From: a virus
Lineage: Duplodnaviria; Heunggongvirae; Uroviricota; Caudoviricetes
Length of the DNA stretch: 7,210 bases
Reading direction: 5' to 3' (one strand)
Virus record (IMG/VR): IMGVR_UViG_2778261667_000004
Location: 1 to 7,210 of that record
Below, one piece after another: positions 1 to 7,210 of this stretch. The notes under the pieces are model-generated. The model searched no databases and was not told the origin of the DNA. It was given only the letters and a program-made list of their open reading frames with translations. The translations under genes and the position numbers were made by a program. Each line of letters begins with the position of its first letter. Positions within the stretch are counted from its first letter, which is position 1.

Positions 1-567
1 TTCTTGCACCGTCTGATAGAGCGTCATCTCTTCAGCATTGTGCCGTATAAAATCTGCTTTCCCGCCTATTTTTCCATCAGCATGAACAGGCACCAACCAG
101 GGGTGCTTGAGGCGAACTTCAATCGGTGCTGCATGTTGATGGTGCCACTTACACAACGGGAGGACGTATTTATGGGCATCTTTAGCCGTTCTGCCAAATA
201 TGTGGTGGAGAGATACGACAGGGCTATACTTCCCGTGAAGATGGCAGGCAATACAGGGGAGTTTGCCTATAGCGTCCTGTATCCGGCGCTCTTCTGCTGT
301 GAGTGATCTCCCTTTTAATCCGCGTGACGTGCGCGTTTTTTTGGGGAGGGCTGACGTCGCTCTCTCTCTTCTGCGCTGTTCACTTTGCCTCGCTTTTTCA
401 AGTTTCTTTTGACGATATTCAGGCGATGCGGCTTTTTCCCTTGCGCGTTGCTGCTGGCGTTGAGCCTGCTGAAGACGTTTTGCCCTTTGCTCTTCCCGCC
501 ATTCCGGATCAGCCAGTTTTTGCATGGCTTTTTGTCTCTGTTTCTCCCAATAACTCTGTCTCTGCAT
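1..567 (-). CDS. Ref-like HNH endonuclease (P1 recombination enhancement function family), 3' end beyond window start; alternative start at 525
   Basis: Reverse-strand frame open from 567 to position 1 with no stop, so not in the ORF track. Translation: MQRQSYWEKQRQKAMQKLADPEWREEQRAKRLQQAQRQQQRAREK...GLKGRSLTAEERRIQDAIGKLPCIACHLHGKYSPVVSLHHIFGRTAKDAHKYVLPLCKWHHQHAAPIEVRLKHPWLVPVHADGKIGGKADF...TVQE. Basic, probably disordered N-terminus followed by a CxxC...HH...CxxHH zinc/HNH-type motif, matching my recollection of P1 Ref. Only weak SD-like AAGAGA upstream of ATG 567. Confidence 0.7.
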   Translation of the reverse strand, partial: MQRQSYWEKQRQKAMQKLADPEWREEQRAKRLQQAQRQQQRAREKAASPEYRQKKLEKARQSEQRRRERATSALPKKTRTSRGLKGRSLTAEERRIQDAIGKLPCIACHLHGKYSPVVSLHHIFGRTAKDAHKYVLPLCKWHHQHAAPIEVRLKHPWLVPVHADGKIGGKADFIRHNAEEMTLYQTVQE

Positions 568-685
568 GTTGGCTGTCTCTTACTTATCAGCGATTTTTTA
601 TAATTGATCATATTTGTTAGTTATTCAAAATTGATTTCTAACATAAAACATTAATATCATCACTGATAACTGTTTGGAGGACATG
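568..685. promoter_or_regulatory. Divergent AT-rich control region between Ref-like gene and rightward operon; inverted repeat TGTTAG(615-620)-N17-CTAACA(638-643); candidate -35 TTGATT (631-636)
   Basis: Non-coding AT-rich stretch between two divergently oriented starts. Inverted repeat and TTGATTT/TCTAACATA words are shared with 4767-4788. The -10 is ambiguous (TAATAT 652-657 at 15 bp spacing, or TATCAT 655-660 at 18 bp). Confidence 0.3.
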
Positions 686-838
686 ATGCTTATAGCTTTA
701 AGTGCGATCCACCAGCCATCTGTGAATGAGATCGGTCTGTTCTATGTGCTGTTTTTCGGGGCGTTGGCGCTACTTGAGCTTGGTATTGAGCTTTTTGCCG
801 TGCTGATGTTTTGCGTCACGATGCTGGGGAAATTTTGA
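686..838 (+). CDS. Small hydrophobic (membrane) protein, about 50 aa, first gene of rightward operon; not in ORF track
   Basis: GGAGG at 676-680, then ATGATG (683/686). Translation: MLIALSAIHQPSVNEIGLFYVLFFGALALLELGIELFAVLMFCVTMLGKF. Stop TGA 836-838 overlaps ATG 838 of the next gene (TGATG). Hydrophobic stretch long enough for 1-2 TM helices. Confidence 0.45.
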   Translation: MLIALSAIHQPSVNEIGLFYVLFFGALALLELGIELFAVLMFCVTMLGKF

Positions 839-1461
839 TGGTGAAACGTGTTTTGAAAATTTACATCGCGGGGCCGATGACTGGTTATCCAGAGTACAAC
901 CGCGCGGCGTTTAATGCGAAAGCGAGCGAGTTGATGGCTGAAGGGCATATCGTTCTGAATCCGGCGGTATTACCTGGTGGCCTTTGTCAGAGTGAATACA
1001 TGGATATTTGCCTGGCAATGGTGCGTTCTGCTGATGCTATCTATCTGCTTAAGGGCTGGGAATCGTCCTCAGGAGCACGAGCAGAACATGACCTGGCTGA
1101 AAAACTGAGGCTTACGGTAATTTATGAATCGCCATCTGACAGAGATTGCAGAATGGCAGCGCATATTTACCGTGAACTGGTCAATGCGTTGTGTGATGTT
1201 GCTATTGAATGTCACGGCACGGATCAGCTTCGCGCTCGCTTAAGCAATACCCTTTCCAGCTACCTGTCTTTAGCTGAAGGATACAACCTCCGGCAGCGGA
1301 GAATGGTCAAATTAATCACGCGTTTATCTCAATCCCTGGCAAATGCCGAACCAACTAATCCGCTACCTAATGACGCAATGAATTATCTGAAGTCATGCGG
1401 CGTTGTTTCTGAAGATGCAGTTCGTTTTGTGGAGTTTATGTCTCAGAGGATGTCGGCGTGA
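838..1461 (+). CDS. DUF4406-family protein (nucleoside 2-deoxyribosyltransferase-like fold) with about 100-aa C-terminal extension of unknown function
   Basis: N-terminal KIYIAGPMTGYPEYNRAAFNAKASELMAEGHIVLNPAVL...AIYLLKGWESSSGARAEHDLA...VIYES matches the DUF4406/NDT-like signature as I recall it. GGGGAA about 7 nt upstream of ATG 838. The track's TTG 811 start would overlap the upstream small ORF, so ATG 838 is preferred. Confidence 0.8.
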   Translation: MVKRVLKIYIAGPMTGYPEYNRAAFNAKASELMAEGHIVLNPAVLPGGLCQSEYMDICLAMVRSADAIYLLKGWESSSGARAEHDLAEKLRLTVIYESPSDRDCRMAAHIYRELVNALCDVAIECHGTDQLRARLSNTLSSYLSLAEGYNLRQRRMVKLITRLSQSLANAEPTNPLPNDAMNYLKSCGVVSEDAVRFVEFMSQRMSA

Positions 1462-1775
1462 GCTGGCGGGGATGGGGAAGGGCAGAAATCATGATACTCC
1501 GCCAGTGCGCCGGGACTATGACGGTCGAGAGTATCGGGAAGCTGATCGGTCGTACCGGTGATGCCGTCAGGACTAAAGCGCGGGAGCTGAGAATCAGCAT
1601 GATTCTGAAAGGTGACTTTCACCAGTCAGCCAAATACCGGCAGAGCGATATAGAGCTGGCGCGGCAGCTTCATCAGTGTGGCGTTCCCCGCCGTGAGATC
1701 GCAGAAAAACTCGAAATGCCCCTGGGCATGATTAATCAGTACGTTTATTTCGAAAGGAGAGTGCATGAAGTCTGA
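1458..1775 (+). CDS. GcrA-like / tandem helix-turn-helix DNA-binding protein
   Basis: GTG start in a GTGA overlap with the upstream stop; AGAGGA 8 nt upstream. MSW...IGKLIGRTGDAVRTKARELRIS resembles the GcrA N-terminal HTH; second HTH-like segment DIELARQLHQCGVPRREIAEKLEMPLGMINQY. Confidence 0.65.
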   Translation: MSWRGWGRAEIMILRQCAGTMTVESIGKLIGRTGDAVRTKARELRISMILKGDFHQSAKYRQSDIELARQLHQCGVPRREIAEKLEMPLGMINQYVYFERRVHEV

Positions 1776-2202
1776 AGGTTTAACGCCAGAGCAACTGGCG
1801 GCGGAGAATGCGGCATTGCGTGAAGTAGTTGAACGCATGATAAATCAATTTGCAATGAGCGGTATTTCTCCAGAAGAGAAGTCAATCAATCCCGCAGCGT
1901 CGCTCATGTTTGATGCTAAATCAGCATTGTCTATGCCTGCAACTGACGCTTTCCTGGCTGAAGTTCGTGCTGAGGCACGCAACGAGGGGATTAACTATAC
2001 CGCAAGCCGTCTTGCTGCTGCTTTTAACCACGGATTTATCAATAAGTCTTTACGTGAAGTTTTCGACGTTACGCGCATGATTCTGTCAGCAAAAGAAGAG
2101 TTGGCTAATGAACCGCACCCGATTGATGGCCTGTCCGGTGAATATGCGGAGAAATCCCTGGAAGAATGGGCAGAACAGATTCGCAAAGGAGGTGATAAGT
2201 GA
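1765..2202 (+). CDS. Ea22-like protein, short paralog carrying only the coiled-coil plus PATDAFLAEVRA module
   Basis: AGGAGA SD then ATG 1765. Contains LAAENAALREVVERM and SMPATDAFLAEVRAEARNEGI, the same modules as in 2618-3322 and 6665-7210. Confidence 0.75.
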   Translation: MKSEGLTPEQLAAENAALREVVERMINQFAMSGISPEEKSINPAASLMFDAKSALSMPATDAFLAEVRAEARNEGINYTASRLAAAFNHGFINKSLREVFDVTRMILSAKEELANEPHPIDGLSGEYAEKSLEEWAEQIRKGGDK

Positions 2203-2609
2203 AGAAGATGATTTTTGTGGCGGCATTGGTGGCCATTACCCAACAGGCACAGGCTTCAGCAGTTATTGTGGCATCTACCGCCGCGACAACGGCTGCTGTA
2301 GCTGCTGCGAACTCTGCGAATATCGCAAACCAACAGGCACAGCGTGCTGCCAATGCATCAGCCGGTGTTCAACCAATTACCATTAAGGCCAGTAAGCAAA
2401 ATCTGGGGTTCATAACGTGCGGCAAGCGTTCTTATGAAGCTGTAGGCTCTCTGGGATGTACGGTATATGGCGATAGTGAGAGTAGAGAAATTCCATGGAA
2501 AACGTGGCCCGGATACGTTCTCGGCTCGAAGCTCCCGGCCAGCTATGAAGTAAACGCCGTATCGTTTGATCACTATAACGGCGTGGCAACTGTCTATTTT
2601 GCATATTGA
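2199..2609 (+). CDS. Secreted/periplasmic protein of unknown function (signal peptide, Ala/Thr/Asn-rich linker, two-Cys C-terminal domain)
   Basis: AGGAGGT SD then GTG 2199 in a GTGA overlap. N-terminus MKKMIFVAALVAITQQAQA|SAV is a textbook Sec signal with AxA cleavage site. Low-complexity linker, then globular C-terminus with Cys-x13-Cys. No lipobox. Confidence 0.7.
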   Translation: MKKMIFVAALVAITQQAQASAVIVASTAATTAAVAAANSANIANQQAQRAANASAGVQPITIKASKQNLGFITCGKRSYEAVGSLGCTVYGDSESREIPWKTWPGYVLGSKLPASYEVNAVSFDHYNGVATVYFAY

Positions 2610-2617
2610 GGCTCCGC

Positions 2618-3322
2618 ATGAAATTCTCCAAATTTTCTGAGTTGGTGAATCGTATTTTGTCCAACAACCACAGCCATCATAGCGATATGGATGTGACGAT
2701 CGTTGTTCATTCGCCTGGCAGCATTGGTTCAACACCCTCAGTTGAGGTTCAGTCAATTCACGCTGGTTTTGATTGGGATTCCGGGAAAGTGCTGATTTTC
2801 CCAGCACAGCCACTGACCACGCTAACACCAGAACAGATTACTGATATTACTGATAGTGTGCGCAAAGGTCAGTCCTGGCACGCATATCAGGAATACAAGA
2901 AGCATAAAGAGCAGTTGGAAAAATTGTCGATTGAACTTGATGCCGCAAAACAGCGCGTTGCAGAGCTGGAGAGCAATCGAGCGGCGCTGGCGGCGGAGAA
3001 TGCAGGGCTAAAGGCGATATGTGATGACCGTCGCAGGCTCATCATGAATGGGGTGCAGATGGGTTATATCAAGGTGCCAACAGCGGAAACAGATCCAGAC
3101 CTTGAGACAATACGTATTGCTATATCACCACAAAAGCCCATTCCAGCCACCGATGCTTTCTTGGCTGAAGTGCGGGCGGAGGCGTTTAACGACCTTTGCG
3201 CGGCGTTTGTCATGGACGCGAGGGGAGTAGGACTGGATGATGACGAGCTAGTGACGCTTAAAGATGCGACAGGTGCGCTGCTGCATTGTGCAGAACAGCT
3301 TAGGGAAGGGGGCAGTCAGTGA
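2618..3322 (+). CDS. Ea22-like protein (Ead/Ea22 family), full-length paralog with distinct N-terminal domain
   Basis: GAGG SD then ATG 2618 (track TTG 2606 would overlap the upstream stop). Coiled-coil NRAALAAENAGLKAICDD and PIPATDAFLAEVRAEAFNDL shared with the other two Ea22-like genes; unique N-terminal domain (DVTIVVHSPGSIGSTPSVEVQSIHAGFDWDSGKVLIFP). Confidence 0.8.
   Translation: MKFSKFSELVNRILSNNHSHHSDMDVTIVVHSPGSIGSTPSVEVQSIHAGFDWDSGKVLIFPAQPLTTLTPEQITDITDSVRKGQSWHAYQEYKKHKEQLEKLSIELDAAKQRVAELESNRAALAAENAGLKAICDDRRRLIMNGVQMGYIKVPTAETDPDLETIRIAISPQKPIPATDAFLAEVRAEAFNDLCAAFVMDARGVGLDDDELVTLKDATGALLHCAEQLREGGSQ
2981..3002 (+). repeat. 22-bp direct repeat (GCGGCGCTGGCGGCGGAGAATG), identical copy at 6968-6989, 16-bp core also at 1797-1815
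   Basis: Exact string match read from the sequence; encodes the AALAAEN coiled-coil segment of the Ea22-like paralogs. Confidence 0.85.
3143..3180 (+). repeat. About 38-bp near-identical direct repeat (PATDAFLAEVRA-coding), partner at 7118-7156, more diverged copy at 1936-1977
   Basis: CCAGCCACCGATGCTTTCTTGGCTGAAGTGCGGGCGGA versus CCAGCCACCGATGCTTTTCTGGCTGAAGTACGGGCGCA; a handful of mismatches by eye. Confidence 0.8.
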
Positions 3323-3618
3323 ATATCGACACCACGATAACGATCGACACGGCTCTCAACACAGGTTTGGCCTTGCTCGGTTGGGTTTACATCATGTTCA
3401 GTGCAGTACGGTGGGTGAAATCTGTTTTTCTAAAGCAGTGGGATAAACTCCGCGAAAAATCACGCCGCCAACAGGCCGTAGATGAATTTTGCGATGCATT
3501 TTCTTTGGAATGCATGGAGCCAGGTAGCACCATCCGCATCGCAACGAAGGAGGACTTGATAATTATGATGTATCGACAGGAGAAGGCAAATGACAGAACA
3601 GACGATGACAAATCGTGA
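3319..3618 (+). CDS. Small single-pass membrane protein, unknown function
   Basis: GTG start inside the junction GGGGGCAGTCAGTGA (3308-3322), overlapping the upstream stop. One predicted TM segment (TALNTGLALLGWVYIMFSAV). Confidence 0.5.
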   Translation: MNIDTTITIDTALNTGLALLGWVYIMFSAVRWVKSVFLKQWDKLREKSRRQQAVDEFCDAFSLECMEPGSTIRIATKEDLIIMMYRQEKANDRTDDDKS

Positions 3619-3814
3619 ACTTGTTGATGCCGCGATTGAACTTGCTGGCGATTTTTATTCCATGATGGGTTACGAGCATCGACCTGGTTTTAAGTATTGG
3701 GAGTCACCGCATCCGCAAGAACGACAGGTGTTTGAAATGGCCTGCCGTGCTTTTGAGGTTATTCGCGGCTCTGATGTGATGGATGCCGTTGCCGACTTGG
3801 AGGATGAAGAGTGA
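3590..3814 (+). CDS. Small acidic protein, unknown function (74 aa)
   Basis: AGGAGAAGG SD immediately upstream of ATG 3590; 29-nt overlap with the upstream gene; acidic composition with DLEDEE tail. Confidence 0.55.
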   Translation: MTEQTMTNRELVDAAIELAGDFYSMMGYEHRPGFKYWESPHPQERQVFEMACRAFEVIRGSDVMDAVADLEDEE

Positions 3815-4041
3815 GCATCATTAAAGAAATGCCGGTAGAACGTGATGAATATGGCTGCTGGACACATCCTGAATATGAAAAATTCTGTGATGGTAGAGAA
3901 CTTATTTCAACGGAAGAGTTTGACACCTGGATGAAGGAAAAGAATCTTCAGTGGACTATTCGCAGTATGGATGAAGATGATTTTAATCTGGGCGCAGATG
4001 GTCCGGTTTGTATCTGGCTGCGGGAGAAGGTTGCCGCATGA
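3811..4041 (+). CDS. Small acidic protein, unknown function (76 aa)
   Basis: GTG 3811 in a GTGA overlap with the upstream stop; its stop overlaps the phosphatase ATG (ATGA at 4038-4041). Two Cys pairs (GCW...FCDG; GPVCIW). Confidence 0.55.
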
Positions 4042-4730
4042 CCCAGGCGCTGCATGAAGTGAATTTATATAGCCGTATTGATGGTTCAGGCTACAGAAAC
4101 ATATGGGTTGTTGGTGATTTGCACGGTTGCTACACCCTGCTTATGAATAAACTCCATCGTGTGGATTTTGACCCGACACAGGATTTACTGATATCGGTTG
4201 GCGACCTTATCGATCGCGGCACAGAAAATGTTGAATGCCTGGAGCTATTGCAGATGCCCTGGTTTCGGTCGGTTATGGGAAACCACGAGCGATTAATGAT
4301 CGATGCGTTAAGTCCCTCTGGCAACGTGAATAACTGGCTAATGAATGGCGGTCAGTGGTTCTTTATGCTGGATAGTGATAAGGAAGTTTTAGCCGGGGCG
4401 CTGGTGGAGCTGGTTAGACGACTGCCTTATATCATAGAGCTGAACACAGGGCAGGAGACTATTGTCATTGCTCATGCTGACTATCCGGATAGAGAGTATC
4501 AGTTTGGCAAGGATGTGTCGCTTTTCAATGTCATCTGGTCGCGAGACCGTGTTAGTGACTCGATAGATGGCATCGGTGAAGAAATCACAGGCGCAGATCG
4601 CTTTATCTTTGGACACACACCGGTACGAAGACCAAAAGCATTCTGGAATCAGCACTACATAGACACAGGCGCGGTTTTTTGCGGAAATCTGACGCTAATA
4701 CAGGTGAAGGGAGGGCAGCTTAAAGTCTGA
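4038..4730 (+). CDS. PPP-family Ser/Thr protein phosphatase, PrpA/PrpB / lambda-phosphatase (ApaH-related) type
   Basis: Canonical metallophosphoesterase motifs in order: GDLHGC (GDxHG), GDLIDRG (GDxxDRG), GNHE, plus later His residues. Length and layout resemble E. coli PrpA as I recall it. GGAGAAGG SD before ATG 4038; track TTG 4008 rejected. Confidence 0.92.
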
Positions 4731-4756
4731 TCAAACCATTTATGCACTCAAAAATT

Positions 4757-4795
4757 CGTTAGAACATTGATTTTAGTTTTCTAACATATTATTTT
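4757..4795 (+). promoter_or_regulatory. Candidate sigma70 promoter (TTGATT 4767-4772, N17, TATTTT 4790-4795) overlapped by inverted repeat GTTAGAA(4758-4764)-N14-TTCTAAC(4779-4785)
   Basis: 98-bp AT-rich intergenic gap after the phosphatase stop. Hexamers match consensus 4/6 and 4/6 at 17-bp spacing. Perfect 7-bp inverted repeat spans the -35 and spacer. Confidence 0.35.
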
Positions 4796-4828
4796 ACCGA
4801 TCGGAACAAAACAGAGTCGGTATGCATT

Positions 4829-5824
4829 ATGAGTGCAATAATCACCCCATATGTCGTAAATGAAACTGGTGTGGCTGTCTTTCCTGTAGATAAGCCCACC
4901 AGCAATTACATCGGCGCAGGACGCCGTTTCATTATCTCTCCACTTCCGCGTGAACAGGCGGAAAACACGCCAGATGGCGTAGTGGATCTGAATTATTCGC
5001 TGGTTGCCAACCAGTCTCTGAAACCATTTTTTCAAAGCGAGCGCGTATTTAACGCATTAGGCGGTGAAGATTCGCTTGTTCATTGGGTAAGTTCCAATAT
5101 CCACGATTGCCAGGCGCACGATAAGCGCGATTGCAGCCACCAGCTAACCACCCATTTCTATAACGGTTCTGCCGTTCGTCTGTGCTGGAAGCATGATGCG
5201 GAATACATGATGAAGGGATACGACAAGCTGGAAGACCAACTGTCACTGAATCGCGCCAACTGGATTATGAACTGGGCTGCCAGCGAGTTAAAACTTCCGC
5301 CAGATCGCGATCTGAGCATGGTTGAACTCACCTTTTGGGCCATTCGCCGGAATCTTAAAGACGAACTGCCTGATGAAGCTGGTCGCATTGCATTTTGTCA
5401 GCCAAAAACTGAAATCCCTACCGGCACCCTGAAAGAGTCGGATATTACCTGGGAGCATAGTACCCGCGAGCTGGTGGATATTTCCGCAGAGCAGATCGTC
5501 AATCTGTCCGTCGATGAAGATTCTGGCCTCCTATATATGCGCCGTCCAAAAACCTTACTCGGAAAAAGCCAGGCTTATCTCCGGTTTGTGGTGTCTCGCC
5601 CATGTGTAGGCTGCGGCGGCAAGGTTAATCACCCGTTCATGTACCGTGCCCGCTCATTAAACGAACACGACCGCTGGGCTGTTCCTCTTTGCGATGACTG
5701 CGCCAGAAGCGCAGAAAACGATGTCCGGGCATGGGAAAAAGCACATGGAATACGCCTTTACGTAGCAGCTAACCAGCTTTTCGACTTCGCCATCGAGCGC
5801 GGAGTGATCACGTTCAATAACTGA
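4829..5824 (+). CDS. DUF968-like prophage protein with C-terminal Cys-rich (CxxC...NEH...CxxC) Ref/HNH-like zinc motif
   Basis: 331-aa ORF after the promoter-like region. C-terminus RPCVGCGGKVNHPFMYRARSLNEHDRWAVPLCDDCARS parallels the PCIAC...HH...PLC motif of the Ref-like gene. Overall resemblance to enterobacterial prophage DUF968 proteins is from memory. Weak SD. Confidence 0.7.
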   Translation: MSAIITPYVVNETGVAVFPVDKPTSNYIGAGRRFIISPLPREQAENTPDGVVDLNYSLVANQSLKPFFQSERVFNALGGEDSLVHWVSSNIHDCQAHDKRDCSHQLTTHFYNGSAVRLCWKHDAEYMMKGYDKLEDQLSLNRANWIMNWAASELKLPPDRDLSMVELTFWAIRRNLKDELPDEAGRIAFCQPKTEIPTGTLKESDITWEHSTRELVDISAEQIVNLSVDEDSGLLYMRRPKTLLGKSQAYLRFVVSRPCVGCGGKVNHPFMYRARSLNEHDRWAVPLCDDCARSAENDVRAWEKAHGIRLYVAANQLFDFAIERGVITFNN

Positions 5825-5840
5825 TGGAGTGGATCAAAAA

Positions 5841-6419
5841 ATGAAAGAACGCGGGATGATTTTTAACGATGAAATGGTCCGGGCAATTCTTGGCGGGAAT
5901 AAAACACAGACTCGCAGGATTGTTGAAGAAAAATTCTATGGACGGGCAGTGGCCGCAGAGTTGCTTGCCAAGCATTGTCCATATGGTCAACCGGGCGATC
6001 GTATTTGGGTTCGCGAAACCTACCGGGTACATGGCAAAGCGACGGACGTCGCAACGCTGGTTTATCGCGCAAGCGTGCGTAACTCCTGGACAGAACAAAC
6101 GCACCGGGTTCCGGTCGAGGTTTGTAATAAACCAGTATCAGAAAAGTGGACGCCATCAATTCACATGCCGCGCTGGGCATCGCGCATTTTGCTGGAAATT
6201 ACCGACGTGCGTGTGGAACGGCTGCATGACATGAGCGAGGCAGATGCTAAAGCAGAAGGCGCAACTCCGGCGACGTACAAGATTACGCCACCTGAAGCTG
6301 TTTATCGCGTTGGTTTTGGTGATATCTGGCGCAGTATTTACGGGCAGGATAACTGGCTATCTAACCCGTTGGTATGGGTAATAGAGTTTAAGCGTATTCA
6401 GGGGGCAACCAGTGAGTGA
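5841..6419 (+). CDS. ASCH-domain (PUA-like fold) protein
   Basis: MIFNDEMVRAILGGNKTQTRR matches the ASCH signature (compare E. coli YqfB DDILAGRKTITIR), followed by GDRIWVRETYRV and C-terminal VWVIEFKRI (YqfB ends FYVIEFK). Start ambiguous: GTG 5829, ATG 5841 or ATG 5856. Confidence 0.75.
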   Translation: MKERGMIFNDEMVRAILGGNKTQTRRIVEEKFYGRAVAAELLAKHCPYGQPGDRIWVRETYRVHGKATDVATLVYRASVRNSWTEQTHRVPVEVCNKPVSEKWTPSIHMPRWASRILLEITDVRVERLHDMSEADAKAEGATPATYKITPPEAVYRVGFGDIWRSIYGQDNWLSNPLVWVIEFKRIQGATSE

Positions 6420-6678
6420 GTCAAAATGCCAAATTAATGGCAACAAGATAGAACCGTGCGCGGCGTTGACGCAATCCCTGGAGCATGACGCTGAATACAC
6501 GACGCGAAAAGGTCTGCTGAAATACAAAATCTATAACCATGCATTAATTCATTCACAAGACCTGATCATGCTGCGGTCTGGTGAATTTTCTAAATCACCG
6601 ATTCGAGTTTCATTTTGCCCGTTCTGTGGTGAAAGTCTGAAAACGTGGGAAGCGGAGGCAACCAGTGAGCAAAATTAA
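6412..6678 (+). CDS. Small Cys-containing protein (possible zinc ribbon), unknown function
   Basis: GTG 6412 inside junction GGGGGCAACCAGTGAGTGA, overlapping the ASCH stop. Cys-x9-Cys near N-terminus and CPFC near C-terminus. Confidence 0.5.
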   Translation: MSESKCQINGNKIEPCAALTQSLEHDAEYTTRKGLLKYKIYNHALIHSQDLIMLRSGEFSKSPIRVSFCPFCGESLKTWEAEATSEQN

Positions 6679-7210
6679 CTATCAAGAACTGCGCGAGGCG
6701 GCGGAACAGGCAACGCAAGATGAATGGGTAGCATATATTTTGCCGGGTCATAACGGCATTTATCCTGCGCGCACGTCTGAGGGTAGGCATTGCGGATACT
6801 TTATTGACTGGCCTGGCATTGATGGACAAAGGAATGCTGGTGCTAATGCCCGTTATATCGCGGCTATCCCACCAAAAGTTGCGCTGGCACTCCTGGGCGA
6901 AATTAAGCGCTTGGAAGACACAAATATTGATGCTATGTGCCGAATTGCAGAACTGGAGGCCTGTCGCGCGGCGCTGGCGGCGGAGAATGAGCTGGCTCGT
7001 AAAGCAGTTCAGGCATTCTGCGATGTTGTTGGCGACAACACCGAGGTTATCGCTGAGGAGATTGGGAGAGATGGTGTTCTGGCTATTTTGGAGGCCATGA
7101 AGGCAACAGGAAATATGCCAGCCACCGATGCTTTTCTGGCTGAAGTACGGGCGCAGGGGGTGGATGCTGCTATAGAAGCTGCAAAAAATCTGGTGGTCCA
7201 AGAATATGAG
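6665..7210 (+). CDS. Ea22-like protein (Ead/Ea22 family), N-terminal part; continues beyond window end
   Basis: Open frame from GTG 6665 to the window end with no stop (absent from ORF track). GGAGG 8 nt upstream. Translation VSKINYQELREAAEQATQDEWVAYILPGHNGIYPARTSEGRHCGYFIDWPG...ACRAALAAENELARKAVQAFCD...NMPATDAFLAEVRAQGVDAAIEAAKN is typical of the family as I recall it. Confidence 0.8.
   Translation, partial: MSKINYQELREAAEQATQDEWVAYILPGHNGIYPARTSEGRHCGYFIDWPGIDGQRNAGANARYIAAIPPKVALALLGEIKRLEDTNIDAMCRIAELEACRAALAAENELARKAVQAFCDVVGDNTEVIAEEIGRDGVLAILEAMKATGNMPATDAFLAEVRAQGVDAAIEAAKNLVVQEYE
6968..6989 (+). repeat. 22-bp direct repeat, partner of 2981-3002
   Basis: Exact string match read from the sequence. 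Confidence 0.85.
7118..7156 (+). repeat. Near-identical direct repeat, partner of 3143-3180
   Basis: See partner entry. Confidence 0.8.

Follow-up and report, generated by a model that had tools for sequence, protein, structure and literature searches.

We asked what the three overlapping genes at the head of a rightward phage operon do and whether they form one system. The genes lie in a stretch of 7,210 nucleotides from a Caudoviricetes virus (IMG/VR record IMGVR_UViG_2778261667_000004, positions 1 to 7,210; hereafter the window). They encode, in order, a hydrophobic protein of 50 residues, a protein with a domain of the DUF4406 family and a tandem helix-turn-helix (HTH) protein. Each of the three is a genuine protein-coding gene on which purifying selection acts, and overlapping stop and start codons link one to the next. 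All three are also already catalogued, and DUF4406 is a known but uncharacterised family. In the reading that we favor, to which we give an even chance, the genes open a tight accessory operon behind a C1-type operator, the DUF4406 protein is an N-glycosidase or transferase acting on nucleoside monophosphates, and the three genes are neighbours rather than one system. The features concerned are as follows.

686-838, plus strand: gene for a 50-residue hydrophobic protein, predicted to lie in the inner membrane, with an ELGIELFA core; its stop overlaps the next start (TGATG).
838-1461, plus strand: gene for the 207-residue DUF4406 protein; DUF4406 domain at residues 7-96 (nucleotides 856-1125), Glu83 codon at 1084-1086.
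1138-1461, plus strand: C-terminal extension of the DUF4406 protein, about 110 residues (residues 97-207 at nucleotides 1126-1458), a helical mosaic module.
1458-1775, plus strand: gene for the 105-residue tandem HTH DNA-binding protein; its GTG start overlaps the upstream stop (GTGA).

The gene trio in D6-like phage-plasmids

Escherichia phage D6 is a P1-type plasmid prophage. D6 was matched over 63% of the window length at 87% identity, and the window represents a D6-like P1-type phage-plasmid. Bases 500-1900 of the window recurred in 158 enterobacterial plasmids, and at least 80% of these bases were present in 112 of them, with identities of 79-96%. Nearly all of the matching plasmids (156/158) were typed as non-mobilizable, and replicon cluster 1704 was common to all nine plasmid records examined. 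Ten related loci spanning the full identity range were compared with the window, and the resulting 11 loci fell into four distinct sequence types.

The annotation of phage D6 already holds the three genes as orf88 (hypothetical), orf89 (DUF4406 domain) and orf90 (hypothetical) at NC_050154, 76689-77766, divergent from the Ref-like nuclease gene orf87. The trio, its order, its overlaps and the divergent Ref-like neighbour are the same in D6 and in the D6-like plasmid prophage copies, at 86-96% nucleotide identity. The window differs from D6 in two respects. Its C-terminal extension belongs to a different allele, which shares about 64% identity with that of D6 across residues 101-190, the protein having 207 residues against 203 in D6. 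The genes downstream also differ, in mosaic fashion.

Family, fold and probable active site of the DUF4406 protein

The preliminary description of this DNA, made from the letters alone, had named a DUF4406 protein with an uncharacterised extension of about 100 residues. This was borne out: residues 7-96 matched PF14359 (E = 1.8e-34; 118.5 bits against a cut-off of 22; model positions 2-91 of 91), and the roughly 110 further residues had no Pfam match. The family-invariant residues G12, P13, N21, F25, P42, S77, G79 and E83 were all present; across 58 relatives they do not vary, and across 215 they are near-invariant. When a profile of 56 homologues was searched against 1.84 billion proteins (E ≤ 0.001), it returned at least 24,509 DUF4406 clusters at 50% identity, counted on cluster representatives. 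Most members are a bare domain of about 95-130 residues, and a minority have N- or C-terminal additions. In the AlphaFold model, the predicted local distance difference test score (pLDDT) exceeded 90 for most of the core.

A fold like that of the nucleoside deoxyribosyltransferases (NDTs) had been proposed as well, and this proposal held. The DUF4406 domain has the alpha/beta N-(deoxy)ribosyltransferase-type fold of the NDT superfamily, and its closest structural matches were metabolic N-glycosidases and transferases, not TIR domains. The DUF4406 profile aligned to the Trypanosoma brucei NDT 2a0k (E = 0.0026), and NDTs were the sole solved structures that it reached. The window protein did not reach PF05014 in Pfam, matched no NCBIfam family and gave no match in a direct sequence search of solved structures.

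The alignment to 2a0k placed the key positions. The stretch KIYIAGP is identical in both proteins and puts Y9 at the triad Tyr of the first strand. P42 stands opposite the Pro of LIPTDN, C58 opposite the triad Asn, and S77-S-G79-A-R-A-E83 opposite D-C-G-T-A-F-E. Conservation was counted in the 215 diverse relatives, with totals that vary by position. E83 was Glu in 208/209, S77 was Ser in 210/210, G79 was Gly in 209/210 and P42 was Pro in 210/211 relatives; position 9 was Tyr in 180 and Phe in 23. The preliminary description had put forward the Glu of GWESS (E75) as the catalytic residue, and this choice failed, with Glu at that position in only 118 relatives (56%). Since E83 is near-invariant whereas E75 is variable, the catalytic residue is likely E83.

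Predicted activity and alternative explanations

Six positions ahead of the Glu, NDTs have an Asp that holds the 5'-OH of nucleosides, and DNPH1 has a Ser that binds the 5'-phosphate. The NDTs (PF05014; 2a0k) are like the DUF4406 domain in the identical KIYIAGP and the aligned Pro and Glu, but the DUF4406 domain has an invariant Ser in place of their Asp. The nucleoside 5'-monophosphate N-glycosidases DNPH1/Rcl and MilB/BlsM share with it the Glu of S-x-G-x-x-x-E, the Ser six positions before that Glu and the first-strand Tyr. They differ from it in that there is no significant sequence match and that the DUF4406 protein has a core shorter by about 50 residues, a Cys at the triad Asp position and the transferase-like Pro42. 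A further comparison is offered by DmtZ, a phage NDT-family dAMP N-glycosidase and phosphodeoxyribosyl transferase of 2-aminoadenine phages, which is encoded beside a dUTPase-like gene and has about 145 residues with the triad Tyr6, Asn77 and Glu103 (PMC12884076). According to the same study, monophosphate hydrolases are without the Asp ahead of the Glu, and a water-excluding Pro marks the transferases (PMC12884076). DmtZ is phage-encoded, and in it the transferase Pro occurs together with a pocket of the 5'-phosphate type (PMC12884076); DUF4406 likewise has both the Ser and the Pro. Linkage to a dUTPase-like gene is also common to both, because a dUTPase gene directly follows the DUF4406 gene in one Vibrio phage. 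However, the spacing of the DmtZ triad differs from that of Y9, C58 and E83, which makes DmtZ a different family within the superfamily. The DUF4406 domain is also without the triad Asp/Asn, and there was no sign of base-modified DNA in the window.

Names attached to related proteins gave further links to nucleotides. The DUF4406 protein matched phrog_355, 'nucleoside 2-deoxyribosyltransferase' (E = 6.8e-43), and phrog_12019, named 'MazG-like pyrophosphatase'. Its viral structural matches included two 'dATP/dGTP diphosphohydrolase N-terminal domain-containing' proteins of 216 and 462 residues. Pfam searches of 40 longer DUF4406 relatives showed only DUF4406 and related NDT-clan models and no informative fusion, so the argument from fusions stands on the PHROG and viral-structure names. 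Every DUF4406 context examined was a phage, prophage or phage-plasmid; apart from the Vibrio phage, the neighbourhoods were early or accessory regions of mixed content in temperate phages.

DNA methyltransferase genes were also seen beside or close to DUF4406 genes, in a P2-like prophage (L016, 5001-6475), phiKO2 (L012, 347-3299) and PhiR46_1 (L013, 370-3173). In the P2-like prophage, the DNA methylase gene comes directly after the DUF4406 gene, with stop and start overlapping. This proximity may be a recurrent association or may merely reflect shared accessory regions.

From these comparisons we infer that the DUF4406 domain adopts the nucleoside deoxyribosyltransferase/DNPH1 fold in a compact and divergent form. 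Judging from the residues at its predicted active site, its most likely activity is that of an N-glycosidase or phosphodeoxyribosyl transferase on nucleoside monophosphates. The domain would bind nucleoside 5'-monophosphates and break the N-glycosidic bond, with Glu83 as the nucleophile. The base would then be released, or the (deoxy)ribose-5-phosphate would be passed to another base. In this way the nucleotide pool could be reshaped or cleaned during phage replication.

Several observations weigh against this assignment. The residue at the triad Asp/Asn position, eight residues ahead of the conserved Asp of the next strand, is Cys58, and the relatives have Cys in 142, Asp in 24, Ala in 19, Thr in 10 and Gly in 9 of 215. 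With Cys58, the chemistry may differ or the domain may only bind its ligand. The shortfall of about 50 residues applies to NDT as well as DNPH1, and the core is without the C-terminal parts by which those enzymes complete their active site across the dimer. The substrate class is read from one Ser and one Pro position, and the gene neighbourhoods are heterogeneous, so the context supports it weakly. A literature search found no measured activity or experimental study of any DUF4406 protein. The putative operator ahead of the operon, described below, is read from the recurrence of a motif.

Three other explanations concern the DUF4406 protein. The altered centre, with Cys for the general-acid Asp, a phosphate-type Ser and a transferase-type Pro, might carry out an undescribed nucleotide reaction, such as destroying a defence-derived nucleotide signal or a toxic nucleotide, or swapping bases on nucleotides, and the membrane peptide and the PmgT-like extension might localise the enzyme. 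We regard this as unlikely. That the DUF4406 domain is not catalytic at all is a slightly poorer prospect: it would be a ligand- or protein-binding scaffold of the NDT/TIR fold with an incomplete triad, and the function would reside in the variable extensions. Cys in place of Asp/Asn, Phe instead of Tyr9 in 23/203 relatives, the short core and the many different extensions, none with a Pfam domain, all agree with such a scaffold. Nevertheless, E83, S77, G79, P42, F25 and Y54 are near-absolute over the 215 diverse relatives, as in an active site, and many members are a bare domain of 93-116 residues, which means that the domain works alone.

A role against host defences, proposed as a speculation in the preliminary description, stands only a little below the undescribed reaction in our estimate and is also unlikely. 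The DUF4406 protein, made early, would hydrolyse or trap a nucleotide-derived immune signal or a toxic nucleotide; the candidates are cyclic ADP-ribose isomers, other signals derived from nicotinamide adenine dinucleotide and modified (deoxy)nucleoside monophosphates. The position at the operon head behind an operator-like site speaks for this, as do the very large size of the family, its restriction in all examined contexts to phages, prophages and phage-plasmids, and the variable N- and C-terminal add-ons that are typical of conflict genes. On the other side, none of the three proteins matched a PADLOC-DB model (E ≤ 0.1), and the literature search gave no link. Searches on deoxyribosyltransferases with anti-defence and on phage-plasmid hotspots returned no functional data for these genes. 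The closest structural matches are the metabolic enzymes, not TIR domains. Simple nucleoside monophosphates are the substrates suggested by the Ser at the DNPH1 phosphate position, and among the fusions and neighbours there were nucleotide-pool enzymes but no known anti-defence genes.

The small membrane-protein gene

The preliminary description had pointed out an unlisted hydrophobic open reading frame (ORF) of 50 codons, coupled to the DUF4406 gene by TGATG. The comparison confirmed it. The ORF was intact in 11/11 loci, and in each its TGA overlapped the following ATG by one base. Its length of 50 codons and the central ELGIELFA motif were invariant across the four sequence types. The pairwise ratio of nonsynonymous to synonymous substitution rates (dN/dS) was 0.04-0.41, with dS up to about 1.7 among the four types, and resembled that of the neighbouring enzyme domain (0.06-0.31). 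The translated ORF matched phrog_8890 across all 50 positions (E = 2.6e-35), and no NCBIfam family matched. The protein has a grand average of hydropathy of 1.58 and a single long hydrophobic stretch at residues 16-48, inside which two conserved Glu residues fall.

In the two most divergent loci, ACA replaces the ATG at 683; because these loci have no upstream ATG, the conserved start is the ATG at 686. Most RefSeq plasmid records omit the ORF, and some call a 51-residue version from the upstream ATG. In a translated search, the small protein was confined to D6 and 110 D6-like plasmids. As a general partner of DUF4406 it was rejected, since the upstream genes in phiKO2, Rac-SA53, PhiR46_1 and one Vibrio phage are unrelated and not hydrophobic.

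Taken together, the small ORF is a real, lineage-specific gene for a small protein whose membrane location is predicted. A quite different role would be mainly that of a regulatory leader: expression of the downstream enzyme would be governed by translation of the 50 codons, and the peptide would have no role of its own. The ORF is indeed the first cistron after the promoter, and its one-base TGATG overlap is conserved everywhere. However, a dN/dS well below 1 and a constant ELGIELFA core and length at dS values up to about 1.7 indicate that selection acts on the amino-acid sequence itself, and we consider the leader the least probable of all the explanations raised here.

The C-terminal extension of the DUF4406 protein

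The AlphaFold model of the extension has three helices at moderate confidence followed by a disordered tail, with block means of pLDDT of 35-76. Pfam gave nothing above noise for this part, and NCBIfam gave no family. Residues 105-144 were 50-52% identical to a stretch of P1 PmgT, P7 Upf89.5 and others, and they also matched several PHROGs of unknown function. The dN/dS of the extension was 0.11-0.46 compared with 0.08-0.19 for the core, which indicates weaker constraint. At least two alleles exist, in the proteins of 207 and 203 residues. The allele of the window and that of loci L001 and L004-L008 regain identity exactly at GCGTGAGC (window 1456-1463), the stop/start overlap with the HTH gene, and this suggests a recombination junction there. 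In the copy on a Shigella dysenteriae plasmid (L010), the extension is missing and the protein is a bare domain of 97 residues. Because of the sharing with PmgT-like proteins, the weaker constraint, the two alleles and the absence in L010, we read the extension as an exchangeable accessory module. It would not be needed for the activity of the DUF4406 core.

The HTH protein

The GTGA overlap to a tandem HTH protein was also as previously described. It was invariant in 9 loci, and the predicted model of the protein consists of two three-helix units. AGGA, a Shine-Dalgarno-like sequence, precedes the GTG at 1458, and AAGGAG is found there in the other extension allele. RefSeq records mostly start this gene 11 or 20 codons too late. 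The RefSeq start at ATG 1491 was ruled out: W6 and E10, which lie upstream of it, are invariant in 25 homologues from other contexts, so the GTG at 1458 is the correct start.

The label 'GcrA-like', given in the preliminary description, did not survive beyond a resemblance in fold. Pfam returned no GcrA family match at E ≤ 10; the weak hits were Sigma70_r4_2 (E = 0.0088), HTH_7 and Sigma70_r4. PHROG 323, 'transcriptional regulator, D5-like', aligned to residues 2-103. A sequence search of solved structures gave noise and a weak match to the tandem HTH structure 2lvs (E = 0.45). Compared as HTH folds with the GcrA DNA-binding domain (5yiu) and the N-terminal HTH of a small terminase (4xvn), the protein showed a generic three-helix likeness to GcrA, and HTH domains of sigma region 4, Tc3, resolvase and Myb scored nearly as well; PF07750 was not matched. 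GcrA has a C-terminal sigma-70-binding domain after its DNA-binding domain. The 105-residue protein differs in having no such GcrA C-terminal domain but a second three-helix HTH unit instead.

The proposal that the HTH protein regulates the enzyme was undercut by its distribution. The family (116 clusters found) occurs in many enterobacterial prophages without DUF4406; in PPompW phages, for example, it follows the replication genes. The HTH gene is also replaced in two divergent D6-like plasmids, both of which retain the small ORF and the DUF4406 gene. Because of this distribution and replacement, we take the protein to be an independent, widespread prophage DNA-binding protein, as predicted from its fold, and not a dedicated regulator of the enzyme. 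In the HTH place, an Escherichia fergusonii plasmid (L009, 3827-4699) has a gene of the PAPS-reductase family (PP-loop), and the S. dysenteriae plasmid (L010, 3533-4177) has a gene for a 214-residue Cys-rich protein.

One system or neighbours

The trio could still work as one module. In it, the peptide would anchor or gate the enzyme by way of the extension, with the HTH protein as regulator of the set, and the plasmid prophage might use the whole as a toxin-like or exclusion device. Translational coupling, a gene order conserved across at least 100 D6-like plasmids and the two conserved Glu residues in the hydrophobic stretch are in keeping with such a device. However, L010 has the peptide together with an extension-free DUF4406 protein, and L009 and L010 are both without the HTH gene. 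The HTH family is found in many chromosomal prophages without the other two, and DUF4406 in many phages without either partner. Moreover, overlapping stops and starts continue across the whole operon to position 4730; coupling is therefore an operon-wide property and not special to the three genes. We consider the module improbable, somewhat more so than the scaffold but less so than the leader. Because each of the three genes occurs elsewhere without the other two, the reading as neighbours is preferred.

The Ref-like gene and the control region

The region ahead of the trio comprises two features.

1-567, minus strand: gene for a Ref-like RecA-dependent nuclease (PF16786), with its start codon at 567 and its 3' end beyond the left window edge.
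568-685, no strand assigned: divergent control region with a conserved block of about 50 bp, an inverted repeat, a promoter-like site and GGAGG.

The trio had been placed at the head of a rightward operon, divergent from a Ref-like nuclease, and the match of the leftward gene to PF16786 RecA_dep_nuc (E = 3e-35; 120.9 bits against a cut-off of 26.9) agreed with this; the D6 counterpart orf87 is annotated as 'Ref-like'.

A block of about 50 bp (about 598-645) was conserved across the 11 loci while its flanks diverge. Inside it lies the inverted repeat GTTAG (616-620)-N17-CTAAC (638-642). The sole promoter-like site from the promoter scan was at 631-660 (TTGATT-18-TATCAT), and its -35 hexamer is overlapped by the inverted repeat. 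GGAGG follows at 676-680, 5 nucleotides ahead of the ATG at 686.

The D6 genome has 12 copies of the repeat core, TTCTAACA, where 3.25 were expected and no more than 8 appeared in any of 200 shuffles. The D6 copies, of the form GTTAG-N17/18-CTAAC, are located as follows.

D6 positions of the repeat, core TTCTAACA: 199, 8919, 9075, 10324, 11367, 21269, 54210, 64116, 75980, 76639, 80731, 89948.

These copies have extended flanks in common and are almost always intergenic; the sites include those upstream of c1, near lpa, in the ref/orf88 gap and in the ppp/pdcB gap. The window carries two copies, at 616-642 and at 4758-4785, the second in the gap ahead of a DUF968 gene. The inverted repeat is probably where the D6-type C1 repressor binds as its operator. 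That it copies the P1 C1 operator consensus was rejected, with 0 sites within 3 mismatches of ATTGCTCTAATAAATTT in D6; a loose resemblance remains. The rightward operon is probably split by the repeat into at least two controlled units.

With the repressor bound to the operator, the operon would be silent in the plasmid prophage, and after induction or infection it would be switched on early in lytic growth. We infer early lytic expression because the repeat that overlaps the promoter is read as a C1-type operator. Of the early role in host takeover or against defences that the preliminary description proposed, the timing is thus plausible from an operator-like repeat that recurs in D6 and overlaps a promoter-like site.

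Relevance and further genes of the operon

The analysis corrects and completes the record for a common plasmid prophage family of Escherichia coli, Salmonella and Shigella. The annotation gains a small membrane-protein gene that most RefSeq records omit, the right start of the HTH gene and a proposed repressor operator. Among phage families of unknown function, DUF4406 is one of the larger, and its key residues are now mapped as Glu83, Ser77, Pro42 and Cys58, the last in place of the usual Asp. This mapping makes nucleoside monophosphates concrete first candidate substrates. If an anti-defence or new nucleotide-editing role were true, the importance may be wider; nothing in this analysis shows such a role.

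Farther along the operon, a 136-residue ORF at 2199-2609 (plus strand) lies where D6 has different genes. Its N-terminus (MKKMIFVAALVAITQQAQASA) resembles a signal peptide, and it matched phrog_8805 over its full length (E = 1.4e-83). Two ORFs at 1765-2202 and 2606-3322 (plus strand) have the motif PATDAFLAEVRAEA in common and match ead/Ea22-like families. Repeated mosaic modules of this kind are typical of lambdoid accessory regions.

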